A stretch of DNA of 10,385 nt from a virus: the UHGV virus genome UHGV-0113374; one strand, written 5' to 3'. The position numbers and the translations under genes are program-made. Shown piece by piece: positions 2,834 through 10,155 of this stretch. Below the pieces are notes generated by a model. That model was not told the origin of the DNA and ran no database searches. It was given only the letters and a program-made list of their open reading frames with translations. Within the stretch, counting starts at the first letter, position 1. Each line of letters opens with the position of its first letter.

Positions 2834-3160
2834 TCAGATTAATGCGATGGATTTGCCCTTCGTTTTCTGGCGACCAACACAAGTCACACCCATTTCACTG
2901 CGTGGCTTGCTGTACCATGTGCGCTGATTCTTGCGCTCAATACGCTGCAGGTTGCTTTCAATCTGTTCGTGGTATTCAGCCAGCACCGTAAGGTCTATCG
3001 GATTCAGTGCGCTTTCTACTCGTGATTTCGGTTTGCGATTCAGCGAGAGAATAGGGCGGTTAACTGGTTTTGCGCTTACCCCAACCAACAGGGGATTTGC
3101 TGCTTTCCATTGAGCCTGTTTCTCTGCGCGACGTTCGCGGCGGCGTGTTTGTGCATCCAT
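2834..3160 (-). CDS. N: N transcription antitermination protein
   Basis: 108-aa product MDAQTRRRERRAEKQAQWKAANPLLVGVSAKPVNRPILSLNRKPKSRVESALNPIDL... matches lambda N including the arginine-rich boxB-binding N-terminus; AGGAG SD upstream; nutL upstream. Confidence 0.9.
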   Translation of the reverse strand: MDAQTRRRERRAEKQAQWKAANPLLVGVSAKPVNRPILSLNRKPKSRVESALNPIDLTVLAEYHEQIESNLQRIERKNQRTWYSKPRSEMGVTCVGRQKTKGKSIALI

Positions 3161-3648: not shown

Positions 3649-4290
3649 TCAGGAGAATTTCATCATCATCTGCACTGCTACGCCGATTATCTTGCAGTTG
3701 CCGTCGATTGGGATCAACGGATAGGCAGGGTTAAGCCCTTTCAGGTATTTGTTACCGCCATCAATGATTAGCTTCTTGAACGTGGCTTCATTAGCATCTG
3801 TCAGCTTCGCAACTACCAGGCTTCCATTAACGGCTTCCTTTCCAGTGTCGAACAGAACCAGCATACCCTCAGGAACGCTAAGGCCGGTAGGAGCTGTCAT
3901 TGAGTCGCCCTGAACCCTGAGCCAGAAGGCGTCACCGACAACGTGACAATCTGATTCATACCACTCATCCACTGCCTGAGGGTTGTACGGCTCTACGGCC
4001 TCACTCCATGCACCTGCGCTAACCCAGCTAATCAACGGAAACTTTTCCCCTGGCTTGTATTGTCCCTGATAGTTGTCGCCAAAAAGCAGTTCTGCCGGAG
4101 CGACGCCCAAAGCTTTAGCTATTACCTCTGCGTCATCAACACTAACGCTTCTGGTTCCTGATTCATAGTTGCCGATCCGAGATTGTGAAGCCCAGCCGCA
4201 AAGCTCCGCCAGAGCCTTCTGTGAAAGCCCTTTATCTTCCCGTAATCGCTTGATACGCGCGGCGATAGTTTCTGTTCTGTTCATGCGCAT
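3649..4290 (-). CDS. cI: CI-type prophage repressor (N-terminal HTH, C-terminal LexA-like S24 autopeptidase)
   Basis: 213-aa ORF; HTH region LSQKALAELCGWASQSRIGNYESG; Ala-Gly cleavage site in VSAGAW; GDSM serine motif and downstream Lys; C-terminal domain closely resembles P22 C2 and lambda CI. Confidence 0.9.
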   Translation of the reverse strand: MRMNRTETIAARIKRLREDKGLSQKALAELCGWASQSRIGNYESGTRSVSVDDAEVIAKALGVAPAELLFGDNYQGQYKPGEKFPLISWVSAGAWSEAVEPYNPQAVDEWYESDCHVVGDAFWLRVQGDSMTAPTGLSVPEGMLVLFDTGKEAVNGSLVVAKLTDANEATFKKLIIDGGNKYLKGLNPAYPLIPIDGNCKIIGVAVQMMMKFS

Positions 4291-4394: not shown

Positions 4395-4610
4395 ATGAAC
4401 AACATTGCCAACGAACGGAAAAAGCTTGGCATCACTCAATCTGCGTTAGCAGGCGCGTGTGGCTGGAACCAGTCCCGCTTAGCTAACTACGAGTCAGGTA
4501 TCCGGACTCCAGATTTAGAGTCGTGCCGTCGCCTGGTAAAGGCGCTGAATAAATTGGGGAGCAAGACAACGCTAGATGGCTTGTTCCCGCCGGAACACAA
4601 AGCCGCTTAA
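4395..4610 (+). CDS. cro: Cro-type repressor (HTH, 71 aa)
   Basis: AAGGAA SD then ATG 4395; HTH LGITQSALAGACGWNQSRLANYESG nearly identical in its recognition helix to CI; divergent from cI across OR. Confidence 0.8.
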   Translation: MNNIANERKKLGITQSALAGACGWNQSRLANYESGIRTPDLESCRRLVKALNKLGSKTTLDGLFPPEHKAA

Positions 4611-4650: not shown

Positions 4651-4673
4651 ATCAAATTAAACCACACCTATGG

Positions 4674-4695
4674 TGTATGCATTTATTTGCATACA
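4674..4695 (+). terminator. tR1-region hairpin (TGTATGCA-tttatt-TGCATACA)
   Basis: Perfect 8-bp inverted repeat between nutR and cII, in the position of the lambda rho-dependent tR1; no U-tract, so not an intrinsic terminator. Confidence 0.4.
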
Positions 4696-4729
4696 TTCAA
4701 TCAATTGTTATCTAAGGAAATACTTACAT

Positions 4730-5008
4730 ATGCAACTTACAAGTACTCGCAAGAAAGCGAATGCAATTACAAGCAACATCCTGAATCGAATTGCTGTACG
4801 TGGTCAGCGAAAGGTTGCCGACGCGTTAGGGATTAATGAATCGCAAATTTCGCGATGGAAAGACAGCTTTATCCCAAAGATGGCCATGCTTCTGGCTGTT
4901 CTTGAATGGGGAGTTGTTGATGATGAGATGGCGAGACTTGCTCAGCAGGTGGCATCGATTCTCACAAAAGAAAAACGCCCAGCTGTTGGTAGCAGTCTGG
5001 ACGCTTAA
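4730..5008 (+). CDS. cII: CII transcriptional activator
   Basis: 92-aa product from ATG 4730 (AAGGAAA SD); ...ESQISRWKDSFIPKMAMLLAVLEWGVVDDEMARLAQQVASILT... is closely similar to lambda CII; the track ORF 4670..5008 starts at an upstream alternative codon. Confidence 0.9.
   Translation: MQLTSTRKKANAITSNILNRIAVRGQRKVADALGINESQISRWKDSFIPKMAMLLAVLEWGVVDDEMARLAQQVASILTKEKRPAVGSSLDA
4753..4766 (-). promoter_or_regulatory. putative CII-binding site of a pRE-like promoter (TTGC-N6-TTGC on the minus strand)
   Basis: Plus strand gcaattacaagcaa is the reverse complement of TTGCTTGTAATTGC, located in the first codons of cII as pRE is in lambda. Confidence 0.4.
4963..5003 (-). terminator. oop-like antisense terminator at the 3' end of cII
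   Basis: Minus-strand RNA would fold CGUCCAG-(14-nt loop)-CUGGGCG followed by UUUUUCUUUU; positioned like the lambda oop RNA terminator. Confidence 0.4.
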
Positions 5009-5219: not shown

Positions 5220-5442
5220 TCAGTGTTTTTACACCGCTGATGCTGAAGGAAAGAGAATTCTTGAGGTTCTGGCAGTGGTGGAAATGCCAGGCAACTGGCA
5301 GCGCAGAATCATTTATTCGTGCCACCTCATAGAGCCTGAAGGCAAGGAGAGGAAAGGAAGGAAGGCTTACACAGTCACCGAATCAAGGTTTTTAAAAATG
5401 TCTACTGGTTACTTCGCTGATTACGAAGTAGAGGAGGCTTAA
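5197..5442 (+). CDS. hypothetical protein (81 aa from ATG 5197; start uncertain, track ORF begins at GTG 5086)
   Basis: ORF track 5086..5442; no candidate start has a strong SD; ATG 5197 overlaps the end of the preceding ORF, which could give coupling. Confidence 0.4.
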
Positions 5443-5588
5443 TGACAAAACCACTCAGTCCTTACCAGGACAAAATTCACAAACACATACTACGTGATCG
5501 CTTCCTGTCCAGCTTCAAGCAGCCTGGTCGATTCCGGGCTGAGTTGGAAAAAGTGAAGCTGATGCAGAAGGAGAAAGGTCATGAGTAA
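5442..5588 (+). CDS. hypothetical small basic protein (48 aa)
   Basis: GAGGAGG SD then ATG 5442, overlapping the upstream stop (TAATG); ends 8 nt inside the initiator gene; below track cutoff. Confidence 0.35.
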
Positions 5589-6441
5589 TCTTGCAACCGT
5601 AACACATTTAAGGCCTTCACAACGGCCTGTGGAGCGTCGTGTGGCAGAAGTTGAAGATGGTTATACCCGTCTTGCAAATGCCCTGTATGAAGAGCTTATC
5701 GGCGCAGATTTAACGAAAAATCAGAGCAAGGTTGCCCACGCCATATGCCGTAAAACATACGGCTACGGTAAAAAGATGGATCGCATCTCTGATAGTCAGT
5801 TAGCTCAAATTACCAGGCTGCCAAGACAGAAGGTAAACAAGGCCAAGAATGAGCTTATCGCGATGAAGGTTATCCTTCGCGAAGGCCAGCAAATCGGGCC
5901 TAACAAGAACATCGAGGAATGGCAAATCGAAGGGTGTCACTACTCTGGTGATAATGTCACCGCATTGGTGACAAAAAGTGTCACCAAAACGGTGACAGCG
6001 CTGTCACCAAAACAGGGACACACAAAAGAAACTATTACAAAAGAAAAAAGAAATAATAAAAACACTATGTCCGAAAGTGTTCGGACGGAGTGTGAAAAAT
6101 CACCTGACCGTCACGAAGAAACCGACAAGGCATTCGAGGAAATATTCTGGTGTGCAGGCATGCGGAAAGCCGGGAAGAAAAACGCAGCTTCGGCATTCAG
6201 AACACAGTTCAGGGAATGGCGTAAAACTACCAGGGGTACGGCAAGCGAGTTTGCCACGATGCTGGCAGAAGACATCGCATGCAGGAATGGTAAGCAGTTC
6301 GGATTCGACAGGTTGTTACCATCGAGCTACCTGAACGGTCAGCGCTGGAACGACGAAAAGCCAGAAACCATTCAACCACAATCCAAACCATCATCCGCAA
6401 TCACCGTATCGAAAACTGGCTACGTGTTTTTCGACAGGTGA
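5581..6441 (+). CDS. replication initiator, lambda O-like N-terminal origin-binding domain with an unrelated C-terminal domain
   Basis: 286-aa ORF; N-terminal [56 protein letters not shown]...GPNKNIEEW resembles the lambda O N-terminal domain; iterons lie inside the coding sequence. Confidence 0.8.
5935..6020. repeat. four 19-bp origin iterons (5935-5953, 5955-5973, 5979-5997, 6002-6020)
   Basis: tgtcactactctggtgata, tgtcaccgcattggtgaca, tgtcaccaaaacggtgaca, tgtcaccaaaacagggaca; each has TGTCACC/GGTGACA dyad symmetry; 20-24 bp periodicity. Confidence 0.7.
6021..6066. other. A-rich tract next to the iterons (putative origin unwinding element)
   Basis: cacaaaagaaactattacaaaagaaaaaagaaataataaaaacact immediately 3' of the fourth iteron, as in lambda ori. 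Confidence 0.5.
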
Positions 6442-6444
6442 ACC

Positions 6445-6552
6445 ATGAAATCAAAAATCAAATCGCTACTGGTCGCTGGTTATAACCACGGCTGGTTAAG
6501 TATTTCGTTTGTCGATTTCTGGTTTAAAAATCTCAATCTGAGGGAATCATGA
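6445..6552 (+). CDS. possible small ORF (35 aa) bridging the initiator and helicase genes
   Basis: AGGTGA SD then ATG 6445; stop overlaps the helicase ATG (ATGA); hydrophobic; could equally be untranslated leader. Confidence 0.25.
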   Translation: MKSKIKSLLVAGYNHGWLSISFVDFWFKNLNLRES

Positions 6553-8429
6553 CGCCAAGTGAACTTAGCGACCTGCTTTGGGCGCAGGTTGACAGGGTGG
6601 CTCCGCACCTGTTGCCAAACGGCAAGAAAGAGGGGCATGAGTGGGTTGCCGGTAACGTCAACGGTGACAAGGGAAACAGCCTTAAGGTCAACCTTAGCGG
6701 CAAGAAAAAATGGGCTGATTTCGCTGAGGGAGACGGCGGTGACATGCTTGATTTGTGGATGGCATGTCGTGGAATTAACCTGCATCAGGCTATGCAGGAA
6801 GCGAAAGCATTTCTCGGTATCAAGGATGACGATCACCATTTCGATGCCAGACGTGAGAAGAAATTCTCCAGACCTGATCGCAAGAAAATCGCCCGCTACG
6901 TTACCAGAACAGAATCCCATCTTGAGTACCTGCAATCGCGTGGCATATCGCCAGAAATCGTAAAGCGCTACGAGGTTGTCAGCGGCAAGGTGTGGAATGG
7001 AGAGCGAGAACTGGATGCTCTGGTGATTCCGTACAAACGCGATGGTGAGTTGTTGCAGGTCAAGCGAATCAGCACTGAGCGCCCGGACGGGAAGAAAGTC
7101 ATTATGGCAGAAGGTGATTGCGAACCTTGTCTGTTCGGATGGCAGGCTCTGGACGCTGGCGTGAGGGCGGTTGTACTTTGCGAAGGCGAAATTGATTGTA
7201 TGAGCTATGCGCAATACGGCATCTCGGCGTTATCCGTGCCGTTTGGTGGAGGGAAAGGCGCTAAGCAACAGTGGATTGAGTTTGAGTATCACAACCTCGA
7301 CAGGTTTGAGGAAATATTCATCTCGATGGACGTTGATGATGTTGGTCGTGAAGCCGCAAGGGAAATCGCAAGCCGACTCGGTGAACATCGTTGCCGTCTT
7401 GTTACTCTGCCGTACAAAGACATCAACGAATGCCTGATGAACGGTGTTACCGAGGATGAAATCTGGCAGTACATCGGCACGGCATCCTACTTCGATCCTG
7501 AAGAACTCTACAGTGCGCGAGAGTTTTACCAGGACACTATCAACGCTTTCTACGGCAAGCAGCAGTATCTGTTTAATCCACCGTGGGAATCTCTGGCAGA
7601 TAAATTCCAGTTCCGTGAGGCCGAGTTGACGCTGGTCAATGGTGTGAACGGTCACGGAAAAACGGAGGTTGTCGGGCATATGGCACTTGAGGCAATGCGT
7701 CAGGGTGTGAAGACATGCATCGCGTCACTTGAGCTGAAGCCTGGTATTCTCCTTAAGCGCCTTACCCGTCAGGCGACGTGCTGCAAGATGCCGCCAGTGC
7801 TGGAAATTGACTCTGCATTTAAATTTTATGACGAAAGACTTTGGGTGTTTGGCCTGACCGGAACGGCGAAAGCCGACAGGCTGATCGAAATATTCGACTA
7901 CGCTCGCCGCCGATACGGCATCCAGTTATTCATCATCGACAGCCTGATGAAATGCGGCATAGGTGACGATGACTATAACGGGCAGAAAGCATTTGTTGAC
8001 TCGATTTGTGACTTCAAAAACAAAACAAACTCCCACGTCATTCTCGTTACTCACTCCAGAAAAGGAGACAGCGAAGAAAAACCAACCGGGAAAATGGACG
8101 TAAAAGGCTCTGGAGCGATAACAGACCTGACAGACAACCTTTTTATCATCTGGCGTAACAAGGCTCGCGAGAGAGCGTTACAGAGAGTTCAGAGTGGTGA
8201 AAAGATGTCAGAGAAGGACGAACAGCTACTGGCATCTCCGGCATCTGTTTTGATGCTTGAAAAACAACGTAACGGCGAAGGTTGGGAAGGTGGTGTCCCG
8301 TTGTTCCTTGACGAGCAATCGCACCAGTTCCTGCAACTTGAATCAGGATCGCCATATAGCTACATCGCCAATATGCCGAAATCGGAATATGACGAGGCGT
8401 GGCGACAGGAAAACGTGACGGAGTATTAA
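6549..8429 (+). CDS. bifunctional DNA primase-helicase (TOPRIM primase domain fused to DnaB-type SF4 helicase domain)
   Basis: 626-aa ORF with GAGGGA SD; TOPRIM-like VVLCEGEIDCMSYAQYG and MDVDDVG; Walker A GVNGHGKTEV; Walker B LFIIDSLMK; ILVTHSRKG motif; N-terminal region has primase Zn-ribbon-like spacing but lacks the Cys ligands. Confidence 0.85.
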   Translation: MTPSELSDLLWAQVDRVAPHLLPNGKKEGHEWVAGNVNGDKGNSLKVNLSGKKKWADFAEGDGGDMLDLWMACRGINLHQAMQEAKAFLGIKDDDHHFDARREKKFSRPDRKKIARYVTRTESHLEYLQSRGISPEIVKRYEVVSGKVWNGERELDALVIPYKRDGELLQVKRISTERPDGKKVIMAEGDCEPCLFGWQALDAGVRAVVLCEGEIDCMSYAQYGISALSVPFGGGKGAKQQWIEFEYHNLDRFEEIFISMDVDDVGREAAREIASRLGEHRCRLVTLPYKDINECLMNGVTEDEIWQYIGTASYFDPEELYSAREFYQDTINAFYGKQQYLFNPPWESLADKFQFREAELTLVNGVNGHGKTEVVGHMALEAMRQGVKTCIASLELKPGILLKRLTRQATCCKMPPVLEIDSAFKFYDERLWVFGLTGTAKADRLIEIFDYARRRYGIQLFIIDSLMKCGIGDDDYNGQKAFVDSICDFKNKTNSHVILVTHSRKGDSEEKPTGKMDVKGSGAITDLTDNLFIIWRNKARERALQRVQSGEKMSEKDEQLLASPASVLMLEKQRNGEGWEGGVPLFLDEQSHQFLQLESGSPYSYIANMPKSEYDEAWRQENVTEY

Positions 8430-8528
8430 ATGACCATCTACATCACTGAGCTAATAACAGGGGCTATTTACACAGTGGCCCTTTTTTATTGGATTAAGAA
8501 CGAGGGGGATCCTGATGGACACCGTTAA
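8430..8528 (+). CDS. possible small hydrophobic peptide (32 aa)
   Basis: ATG directly after the helicase stop; MTIYITELITGAIYTVALFYWIK...; overlaps the start of the next ORF; weak support. Confidence 0.25.
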   Translation: MTIYITELITGAIYTVALFYWIKNEGDPDGHR

Positions 8529-8718
8529 CGGAATGTGTTCAGACGCACCGCGTGCCAAAAAATGTAAATGCGGAAAATCACCGACAATATTTGACATGGA
8601 GAGCGGGTGCCAAATCTACTGCGCTAACCACGCCGCTGTGGCGGCCGCGAATTATCGCAGTGCGGTAACGGAGTGGAATAACCTGAAATCTGTTAGAGAG
8701 GGAAGTCATGAATCTTGA
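8515..8718 (+). CDS. hypothetical Cys-rich small protein (67 aa, CxC...C-x3-C)
   Basis: ORF track; GAGGGGGA SD before ATG 8515; cysteine pattern KKCKCGKSPTIFDMESGCQIYCANH. Confidence 0.55.
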   Translation: MDTVNGMCSDAPRAKKCKCGKSPTIFDMESGCQIYCANHAAVAAANYRSAVTEWNNLKSVREGSHES

Positions 8719-8890
8719 CGAGCAAGATGCACAAACTATTAGCTCATACATAAGGGCATCAAGACCAGATTACAAAGGTCCGGTATTCGTAGATTTATCT
8801 CGCCTTGAGGAGATTTACATGTGGGAAGCAAAGCTACGTACGCATTTTTTTATTCGTAAGATGACTAGCAACATTACAAAACCAATGTAA
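8708..8890 (+). CDS. hypothetical protein (60 aa)
   Basis: ORF track; GAGGGAAG SD before ATG 8708; overlaps the previous ORF by 11 nt. Confidence 0.5.
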   Translation: MNLDEQDAQTISSYIRASRPDYKGPVFVDLSRLEEIYMWEAKLRTHFFIRKMTSNITKPM

Positions 8891-8904
8891 CTGGAGAGGT
8901 GAAT

Positions 8905-9120
8905 ATGAGCACACTCGCAGACCTTATTCATGCCGATATGGCGGAAGATGGAGCAAGGCGTAATAGGTACTGGAAATCATCAAGCCTTCCAGTTTGTGAA
9001 AGATTCAACCACAGGCCAAAACCAAAACGTAGCCGGCGAGACAAAGTGTTGAAAAAACTCATGCAAATTAACATGGCTGGTTTTGTCAGATTCGTGAGTG
9101 AAACGACTAACGGGGATTGA
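8905..9120 (+). CDS. hypothetical basic protein (71 aa from ATG 8905; track starts at GTG 8899)
   Basis: ORF track 8899..9120; GGAGAGG SD favours ATG 8905; basic stretch RPKPKRSRRDK. Confidence 0.5.
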   Translation: MSTLADLIHADMAEDGARRNRYWKSSSLPVCERFNHRPKPKRSRRDKVLKKLMQINMAGFVRFVSETTNGD

Positions 9121-9121
9121 T

Positions 9122-9475
9122 ATGGACGAATCAAGAAAGTCTTTCGAGCAATGGGCATCAAAGCAATTCAATATCTCAGTAGAGGAAATTGTTAATAAGC
9201 GAATGCTGGGTGATTACCTGCACAACCCAGACTTACATAATGCATGGCAAGCATGGATAGATAGCAGGGCGGCAATAGAAATTGAGCTACCAAAGCCTCA
9301 TGCACATCTTATATGGATTCAGGCTGGTCATGCGCCTGACGATTATTGGGATGATGTGGCGGTGTCATATAGCGAAAAGGATAAATGCTGCGACGGTTCA
9401 GACCGCTATCCTGTGCATGCTGGATGGGAAATTGAAGAGGTTCTTCGCGCCGCTGGAATCAAAGTGAAGGAGTGA
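9122..9475 (+). CDS. hypothetical protein (117 aa from ATG 9122; track starts at GTG 9098)
   Basis: ORF track 9098..9475; ATG 9122 follows the upstream stop by 1 nt and has a GGGGA SD-like run; GTG 9098 has none. Confidence 0.55.
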   Translation: MDESRKSFEQWASKQFNISVEEIVNKRMLGDYLHNPDLHNAWQAWIDSRAAIEIELPKPHAHLIWIQAGHAPDDYWDDVAVSYSEKDKCCDGSDRYPVHAGWEIEEVLRAAGIKVKE

Positions 9476-9479
9476 GTAT

Positions 9480-9734
9480 ATGCCATTTATAAAATTAACC
9501 ATGCAATGCAGCATCTATCAGCCACCAAGCACAGGCGTGATAGAAAGCACCAGAAGTGCATATGAGCCCTTGTACGTTAACTCTGACAACATCGAAACCC
9601 TATTTGAGGCCGGGATTACGATTGTAAGAATGGCAAGTGGTGAGCGGTTCGATGTTATTGAGAAACCAGAAGCTATTTTGGCGTTAATTAATCCATGCGT
9701 GCAGAAGGTGAGCAATGAGGAAACTAACGTTTGA
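9480..9734 (+). CDS. hypothetical protein (84 aa)
   Basis: ORF track; GAAGGAG SD before ATG 9480; overlaps the ninB start by 20 nt. Confidence 0.5.
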   Translation: MPFIKLTMQCSIYQPPSTGVIESTRSAYEPLYVNSDNIETLFEAGITIVRMASGERFDVIEKPEAILALINPCVQKVSNEETNV

Positions 9735-10155
9735 ACTAAGAAGCCCCATTCATCAGCAAAACGCTATTCACGCGATACAGCAAATTCTTCCAGACCCAAC
9801 CAAACCAATCGTAGTAACCATTCAGCAACGCAACCGCAGCTTAGACCAGAATCGAAAGCTTTGGGCTTGCCTTGGTGACGTCTCTCGTCAGGTTGAATGG
9901 CATGGTCGCTGGCTGGATGCAGAAAGCTGGAAGTGTGTGTTTACCGCAGCATTAAAGCAGCAGGATGTTGTTCCTAACCTTGCCGGGAATGGCTTTGTGG
10001 TAATAGGTCAGTCAACCAGCAGGATGCGTGTAGGCGAATTTGCGGAGCTATTAGAGCTTATACAGGCATTCGGTACAGAGCGTGGCGTTAAGTGGTCAGA
10101 CGAAGCGAGACTGGCTCTGGAGTGGAAAGCGAGATGGGGAGATCGGGCAGCATGA
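9715..10155 (+). CDS. ninB: NinB (Orf) recombination-associated protein
   Basis: 146-aa product [146 protein letters not shown] is near-identical to lambda NinB. Confidence 0.9.

Follow-up and report, generated by a model that had tools for sequence, protein, structure and literature searches.

A predicted lambda-type iteron origin and a phage-encoded gp4/Twinkle-type primase-helicase in a three-gene replication module of a lambdoid prophage

In one type of lambdoid replication module, described by Casjens and co-workers, the partner of a lambda O homologue is a primase-helicase, which takes the place of a DnaB-like helicase (PMC10307801). Modules of this type are known from ES18, epsilon34, STMP5/17, mEp043 and many Shiga-toxin (Stx) phages. 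In epsilon34, gp50 is the likely origin binder by its homology to lambda O, and its N-terminal region is 94% identical to amino acids 17-148 of lambda O (PMC2629481). Fusions of DnaG and a helicase that resemble T7 gp4 are a recognised, recurrent phage variant (PMC4889955), lambdoid modules that possess O only have been documented (PMC12315714), and surveys of Stx phages report replication regions with HTH_36 proteins and primases (PMC8951638). Here we analysed the UHGV virus genome UHGV-0113374, a stretch of 10,385 nucleotides (hereafter, the window), which the list of open reading frames (ORFs) together with Pfam and PHROG scans identifies as the immunity-to-nin region of a lambdoid E. coli prophage. 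Its replication genes are those of the known module type, and the gene content is not new. We propose, with a probability of about 0.6, that the best explanation of the locus is a three-gene module of the ES18/epsilon34/mEp043 type, in which the phage's own primase-helicase would be tethered at the iteron origin and the host helicase bypassed. The genes of the module and the two domains of the initiator are as follows.

5581-6441, plus strand: replication initiator, lambda-O-like, 286 amino acids (ORF list, Pfam, identity to lambda O)
5638-5922, plus strand: winged-helix origin-binding N-terminal domain of the initiator (N-domain), amino acids 20-114 (Pfam Phage_rep_O)
6106-6366, plus strand: C-terminal three-helix domain of the initiator (C-domain), amino acids ~176-262 (AlphaFold2 (AF2), representative search)
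6445-6552, plus strand: 35-codon gene MKSKIKSLLVAGYNHGWLSISFVDFWFKNLNLRES (PHROG 21848, E=4e-26)
6549-8429, plus strand: primase-helicase of the T7 gp4/Twinkle family, 626 amino acids (Pfam, PHROG, PDB search, Foldseek)

The three genes stand in the same order in ES18 (gp59-gp60-gp61), epsilon34 (gp50-gp51-gp52), mEp043 and Sf101 (PMC2629481, PMC10307801). As in ES18, an initiator with the C-domain, a 35-amino-acid ORF and a gp4-like primase-helicase are placed between cII and the nin region. The identity between ES18 and the window is 95% in the C-domain and 97% in the N-terminus of the primase-helicase. In contrast, epsilon34 and ES18 possess lambda-type iterons and a lambda-type N-domain (PMC2629481), whereas the iterons in the window read TGTCACC...GGTGACA.

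Phage_rep_O (PF04492) matched amino acids 20-114 of the initiator over the full profile (1-95) with E=1.2e-37, and amino acids 1-157 are 49% identical to lambda O. Thus, the N-domain is predicted to be a winged helix of the lambda O type. Beyond amino acid 157, BLASTP gave no significant similarity to lambda O. When the C-domain was compared by hhalign, the probability was 0.1% for the C-terminus of lambda O and less than 1% for the C-termini of P22 gp18 and of the initiator of Pseudomonas phage AF; moreover, the C-termini of the window initiator, lambda O and P22 gp18 fall into disjoint sets of PHROG families. Among the ORFs of the window, no match to P-like, DnaC-like or other loader families was obtained with Pfam, PHROGs or both, and PHROG 109, which matches lambda P, matches none of them. 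An earlier note on this DNA, made from the sequence alone, had stated that the initiator keeps the N-terminal domain of lambda O, that its C-terminal half is unrelated to the P-binding half of O and that a P-like loader is absent; our searches agree with it on all three points.

The locus therefore resembles the lambda O-P pair in the Phage_rep_O N-domain, in the origin within the initiator gene (see below) and in the position downstream of cII, but differs from it in that the C-terminal half of the initiator is unrelated, P is lacking and a primase-helicase is encoded instead. The gene 18/gene 12 pair of P22 is similar in another respect: an O-like initiator with a partner-specific C-terminus is followed by a phage helicase of superfamily 4 (SF4), which replaces host DnaB (PMC8022706). 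However, gp12 is DnaB-like and without a primase, whereas the protein encoded in the window is of the gp4/Twinkle type with a TOPRIM domain, and the C-terminus of gp18 is unrelated to that of the window initiator.

The predicted origin lies inside the initiator gene and consists of three adjoining elements.

5935-6020: four 19-bp palindromic iterons, TGTCACC-N5-GGTGACA, starting at 5935, 5955, 5979 and 6002 (repeat finder)
6021-6061: A-rich (A/T-rich) tract (sequence; peak of AT skew, 0.365; aligns with the A/T-rich region of lambda)
6062-6093: inverted repeat I4 with 14-nucleotide arms and a 4-nucleotide loop, 86% complementary (repeat finder)

A search with the iteron pattern gave 6 matches, against 0.01 expected. 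The spacing of the iteron starts (20/24/23 bp) is that of the lambda ori, and an alignment places the iterons in register with those annotated for lambda in NC_001416. The AAAAC centre of the iteron is common to both, while the arms differ. Because register and spacing are shared with lambda and the arms are not, the predicted origin is of the lambda type with a different specificity. The A-rich tract is likely to be a DNA-unwinding element, and the inverted repeat directly to its right is kept in epsilon34. In the AF2 model, amino acids 120-165 of the initiator form a disordered linker that joins the N-domain and the C-domain, and this linker coincides with the coding stretch of the iterons and the A-rich tract. 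The earlier note had overlooked both this origin and the 35-codon gene at 6445-6552.

The A-rich tract is also the mosaic joint between the two halves of the initiator. In epsilon34-type phages, DNA similarity to the window begins at ~6008, with lambda-type iterons and N-domain to the left. In Stx phages (phi24B/Min27 type), it begins at ~6057, with an HTH_36 N-domain to the left. Both joints sit at the fourth iteron or within the A-rich tract, and the C-domain, the 35-codon gene and the primase-helicase gene move as a block while the N-terminal half is exchanged (see also PMC2629481). From position 6057 onward, the Stx phages are 97-99% identical to the window in DNA and their C-domain is ~96% identical; they differ in the HTH_36 N-terminal half, which is not Phage_rep_O, and in a 342-amino-acid LAGLIDADG intein in Walker A. 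The phi24B/Min27-type region is probably the "Eru5" of PMC8951638.

The 626-amino-acid protein was matched by PHROG 239, "DNA primase/helicase" (E=1e-171), and comprises three domains.

6549-6818, plus strand: cysteine-free zinc-ribbon-like N-terminal domain, amino acids 1-90 (AF2, alignment of relatives)
7173-7436, plus strand: TOPRIM core, amino acids 209-296 (Pfam Toprim_2, E=3e-12)
7611-8330, plus strand: RecA-type helicase domain of SF4, amino acids 355-594 (Pfam AAA_25/DnaB_C)

Its best sequence relatives in PDB are T7 gp4 (E=2.7e-23, with amino acids 192-539 aligned continuously) and Twinkle (E=6.5e-14). The AF2 model (mean pLDDT 72) was compared by Foldseek, which gave E values of 5.9e-21 for Twinkle, 9e-20 for T7 gp4 and 9e-11 for the zinc-binding and RNA-polymerase domains of Aquifex DnaG; the alignments span most of the protein (608-620 columns for Twinkle and 438 columns for Aquifex DnaG). 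Like T7 gp4 and mitochondrial/plastid Twinkle, the protein is arranged as a domain resembling the zinc-binding domain, an RNA-polymerase-TOPRIM domain, a linker and a RecA-type helicase. The earlier note had called it a 626-amino-acid fusion of TOPRIM and a DnaB-type helicase. The coordinates and the TOPRIM domain hold, and the catalytic motifs are intact; the helicase, however, belongs by these comparisons to the gp4/Twinkle branch of SF4 and not to DnaB proper. T7 itself differs from the present system: it lacks an iteron-binding initiator, uses its own polymerase and has a Cys4 zinc site in gp4.

The acidic residues of the TOPRIM core (E212/E214, D261/D263 and D291) align with those of T7 gp4. 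The helicase motifs are Walker A (G365-T372, with K371), E395, Walker B (D464) and H502. The TOPRIM acidic residues and K371, E395, D464 and H502 are invariant across 27 relatives, which are 61-95% identical to the window protein. At the position of T7 gp4 R522 (DLRGSGA), which we take to be the arginine finger, there is an invariant lysine, K519, in the motif MDVKGSGA (codons 516-519 are 8094-8105); R536, near K519, is likewise invariant. The finger acting in trans may therefore not be the same in this subfamily as in T7.

In the AF2 model, amino acids 1-90 of the primase-helicase form, at a pLDDT of 82-92, two helices, five short strands (26-28, 31-34, 45-48, 55-57 and 62-64) and two further helices. 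In its succession of glycines and strands, the stretch G-x-E-W-x-x-G-N-x-x-G-x-x-G-N-S-L-K-V-N-L-x-G-K-x-x-W-x-D-F-A-x-G-x-x-G-D-x-L-D-L-W resembles a primase zinc ribbon, and W55-x-D57-F-A-x-G-x-x-G64-D65 is a conserved motif. At the ligand positions, neither Cys nor His is found in the window protein and the 27 relatives, in accord with the earlier note, which had pointed out ribbon-like spacing without cysteines. No Pfam zinc-ribbon model matched the N-terminal 204 amino acids at E<=10. T7 gp4 shows CxxC...CxxC at the ribbon. The same Cys-less motif was found in homologues from Pseudomonas phage AF, Acidithiobacillus phage AcaML1, Variovorax phage VarioGold and Wolbachia phage WO. Because the motif is conserved in such distant phages, the ribbon is a conserved zinc-less variant of the domain, spread far beyond enterobacteria, and not a product of local decay.

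In Stx-phage homologues, an insertion of 342 amino acids is present within Walker A of the primase-helicase (GHGK | ACPLNEP...VATHN | TEVVGH). It was seen in phage Min27 (L003, 4108-5133), phi24B, Stx2a_F403/F451 and Xuzhou21. Because the insertion contains two LAGLIDADG-like motifs, it is assigned from its sequence as an intein with a homing endonuclease. It should be mentioned that the Min27 gene is also split near amino acids 512-515 into "P" and "ORF31", by a frameshift or a sequencing error.

The 35-codon gene fills the 107-nucleotide interval between the initiator and the primase-helicase genes. It is translationally coupled on both sides: 3 nucleotides separate the initiator stop from its first codon, and its stop codon and the primase-helicase start codon overlap as ATGA. 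Counterparts are ES18 gp60 and epsilon34 gp51; others occur in g341c and LMessi, and they are labelled hypothetical. We compared 18 diverged loci, in which the primase-helicase identity ranges from 56 to 100%. In all 18, the frame is open and exactly 35 codons long, and the AGYNHG core of the product is conserved. The pairwise ratio of nonsynonymous to synonymous substitution rates (dN/dS) is 0.24, and the other two frames are closed by stops in 17-18 of the 18 loci. Because of the fixed length, the open frame, the dN/dS value and the closed alternative frames, we conclude that the sequence is a genuine gene, kept by purifying selection, and that the module has three genes. PHROG 21848 was the sole family that matched the product, and no loader family did. 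By the position of its gene, the 35-amino-acid protein is a candidate accessory factor for helicase delivery. In five loci that are otherwise near-identical prophages (L013, L016, L031, L037 and L078), a 491-bp insertion separates this gene from the primase-helicase start (~5497-5988 in locus coordinates). In E. coli NZ_LR536431, where the match is in two pieces, an HNH endonuclease with a NUMOD4 motif is annotated under the match. The insertion looks like a free-standing homing endonuclease within the module.

The C-domain was modelled by AF2 from an alignment of 118 sequences. Amino acids 176-256 have a pLDDT of 94-98 and form three helices (176-192, 199-217 and 221-235) and a short fourth one. 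The domain has no Pfam match, and no relative turned up when all PDB sequences were searched with a profile (best E=3.1, unrelated). A link to DnaT, suggested by the RAST name "Primosomal protein I" of the homologue in phage Fraca and by PHROG 9327 ("primosomal protein"), was dropped after this PDB search.

For the spread of the domain, a word-index homologue search returned nearly only fragments of near-identical proteins, and a scan of viral contigs returned 80 near-identical loci, which are uninformative for co-occurrence. These were replaced by an exhaustive HMMER search through 1.84 billion representatives and by a scan of one genome per species. In the former, 367 representative clusters carry the C-domain at E<=1e-3, in proteins of some 230-420 amino acids, where it is always C-terminal. 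Conserved residues are F185, F189, W190, G193, K196, K199, F206, F224, L228, D231, R235, G241, F242, P247, Y250, L251, N252, R255, W256 and D258, among which F185, R235, G241, Y250 and D258 are invariant. In the 118 sequences, the N-terminal partners are HTH_36 (19), Phage_rep_O (12), DUF1376 (12), DnaD_N (7), Lin1244_N (4) and others. As judged from these architectures, the C-domain is a portable, widespread module of replication initiators.

With one genome scanned per species, 48 loci with the C-domain were obtained, and the downstream genes of 44 of them were classified by BLASTP to reference proteins and, for some, by Pfam. A gp4-like primase-helicase follows the initiator in 21 of the 44. 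Where the C-domain identity to the window is ~52% or more, the primase-helicase is directly next in 20/20 loci; these are from Enterobacterales, and in this close subfamily the 35-codon gene accompanies the pair. The primase-helicase is also next in one distant locus from Chryseobacterium, and it directly follows a C-domain initiator in phages Fraca, LMessi and ValSw3-3 and in a Proteus prophage. The 20 close loci include copies in Arsenophonus and Symbiopectobacterium, insect endosymbionts. In three of these (L104, L111 and L112), the primase-helicase gene is broken into several short ORFs, as is the initiator gene in L111 and L112; judging by the broken frames, they are decaying prophage copies of the module.

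Several observations weigh against a tethering of the primase-helicase by the initiator and a bypass of the host enzymes. In the same 44 loci, a DnaB-like helicase follows in 5, a DnaC-like loader in 3, and nothing recognisable lies within 3.5 kb in ~15. Annotated phages vary likewise: Skulduggery has a DnaC-like loader downstream of its initiator, and in PVA1 and D65 neither such a loader nor a primase-helicase is present. In Pseudomonas phage AF, a homologue of the primase-helicase directly follows an O-like initiator without the C-domain. In locus L101, the primase-helicase is 93% identical to that of the window and the C-domain only 66%; because of this difference, co-adaptation of the two is loose. 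Co-divergence with primase-helicase identity does not discriminate between the two halves of the initiator (rho 0.65 for the C-domain versus 0.62 for the N-domain). As to the enzyme, K519 replaces the R522 of T7 gp4. The zinc finger directs template recognition in plant Twinkle and T7 gp4 (PMC10557236), and animal Twinkle, with its altered primase domain, acts as a helicase without primase activity (PMC3610141). Because the ribbon lacks its ligands, and in view of these precedents, primase activity of the phage protein is not assured. Zinc ligands are missing in both the window protein and animal Twinkle; the former, in contrast to what is reported for the latter (PMC3610141), keeps all TOPRIM acidic residues. 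In the literature, we found no published assay of primase or helicase activity for this protein, and no experiment that addresses whether host dnaB, dnaC or dnaG is needed or whether initiator and helicase make contact.

The earlier note had proposed that the C-terminal domain of the initiator recruits the phage's own primase-helicase. The strict linkage in the close subfamily speaks for this proposal, and a contact between the two proteins is plausible there on this pattern. As a general rule, it is weakened: because the C-domain elsewhere adjoins a DnaB-like helicase, a DnaC-like loader or no partner, and because it is absent from the AF initiator, we regard it as a general initiator module, with a partner specificity that differs from one subfamily to another, and not as a dedicated adaptor for the primase-helicase. 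The role of adaptor may equally well fall to the 35-amino-acid protein.

These results bring in an alternative, in which the C-domain has a general role in initiation and does not contact the primase-helicase at all. It might hold or open the DNA of the melted origin, mediate oligomerisation of the initiator or bind a host factor, while the primase-helicase, perhaps with the help of the 35-amino-acid protein, would self-load at an origin that is open and activated by transcription, an ability of gp4-type rings. The four kinds of downstream partner (none included), the AF initiator and the drift of the C-domain in L101 are all in line with this idea, and so is the richness of the domain in conserved basic residues (K196, K199, R235 and R255), although no match to a DNA-binding fold was obtained for it. 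Moreover, the linkage in the close subfamily persists even where the N-terminal half has been exchanged, which is the classical pattern of the pairs of lambda O C-terminus with P and of P22 gp18 C-terminus with gp12. On balance, we consider a purely general role unlikely.

In a second alternative, host DnaB is still the helicase at the origin and is recruited directly by the C-domain, in the manner of "O-only" lambdoid modules; the phage protein would then be auxiliary, in priming, late replication or restart, or would be a helicase with a dead primase. Relatives of the C-domain without a helicase or loader gene must use the host's, "O-only" modules are documented (PMC12315714), and the Cys-free ribbon together with the Twinkle precedent (PMC3610141) permits the primase-dead reading. 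However, in relatives that are 61-95% identical, all acidic residues of TOPRIM and the helicase motifs are unchanged, and the gene occupies the exact position of P and gene 12, translationally coupled to the initiator gene via the 35-codon gene. The intein in Walker A of the Stx-phage homologues also argues against an auxiliary role: inteins in such motifs are typical of essential genes. This alternative is therefore, in our view, highly improbable. As for the ~15 loci in which neither helicase nor loader was detected, the neighbours there are Rha/ANT, DUF1367, Dam or NusG-like genes.

We therefore return to the tethered, phage-encoded primase-helicase as the preferred reading. Its steps would be as follows. 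Dimers of the initiator on the iterons would distort the A-rich tract, and rightward transcription from pR would aid the opening of the origin, as in lambda. The phage primase-helicase would then assemble as a ring on the opened strand, tethered by the C-terminal region of the initiator, by the 35-amino-acid protein or by both. It would unwind the DNA and make primers for host DNA polymerase III (Pol III). Host DnaB, DnaC and a P-type loader would be bypassed, and DnaG probably too. On gene content, independence from host DnaB and DnaG is plausible. A more specific version can be entertained only tentatively: the 35-amino-acid protein, alone or with the C-domain, would deliver a gp4-type ring to an iteron origin, the Cys-free primase would be active, and the lambdoid and Stx prophages of this class would replicate without DnaB, DnaC and DnaG.

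If DnaB, DnaC and DnaG are indeed bypassed, these prophages would escape the host controls that act on lambda, and the bypass would bear on the induction of Shiga-toxin phages and on the coupling of a phage helicase to host Pol III. The mechanistic interest lies in how a gp4-type helicase is loaded at an iteron origin, in the roles of the three-helix domain and the 35-amino-acid protein, and in priming with a zinc-less ribbon. Over 97% of its length, the segment 5400-8500 matches phages mEp043 and Sf101 at 99.1% DNA identity. The module is common: parts of the segment occur in 282 phage records, many Stx2-converting phages among them, as well as in 637 of 5426 complete E. coli genomes. In matching records, the initiator is labelled "replication protein" or "DNA replication protein O" (the latter in mEp043 and Sf101), and the primase-helicase "toprim domain-containing protein" or "DNA primase/helicase" (the latter in mEp043, SEN22 and Oslo).

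The remaining features of the window are those around the module.

2834-3160, minus strand: N
minus strand: cIII
3649-4290, minus strand: cI
4395-4610, plus strand: cro
4670-5008, plus strand: ORF of cII (Pfam Phage_CII)
5442-5588, plus strand: DUF2740 ORF, 48 amino acids, between cII and the initiator gene
8515-9734, plus strand: five small ORFs (PHROGs 6308, 21123, 1785, 343 and 8458; putative, function doubtful)
9715-10155, plus strand: ninB

The cII ORF, as delimited mechanically, encodes 112 amino acids, and the Phage_CII match begins only at amino acid 21. The true start is probably the ATG at 4730 (MQLTSTRKK...), which agrees with the 93-amino-acid cII annotated in mEp043. The stop of the DUF2740 ORF overlaps the initiator start. 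This ORF is labelled "tail protein" by PHROG 1913 and RefSeq. Because its position in the early-right operon is conserved (as for P22 orf48), that name is very unlikely to be right. Between the primase-helicase gene and ninB, the small ORFs form a block of ~1.2 kb. In mEp043, this block is absent and ninB begins 78 nucleotides past the primase-helicase gene; on this comparison, the block at 8515-9734 appears to be a mosaic insertion.

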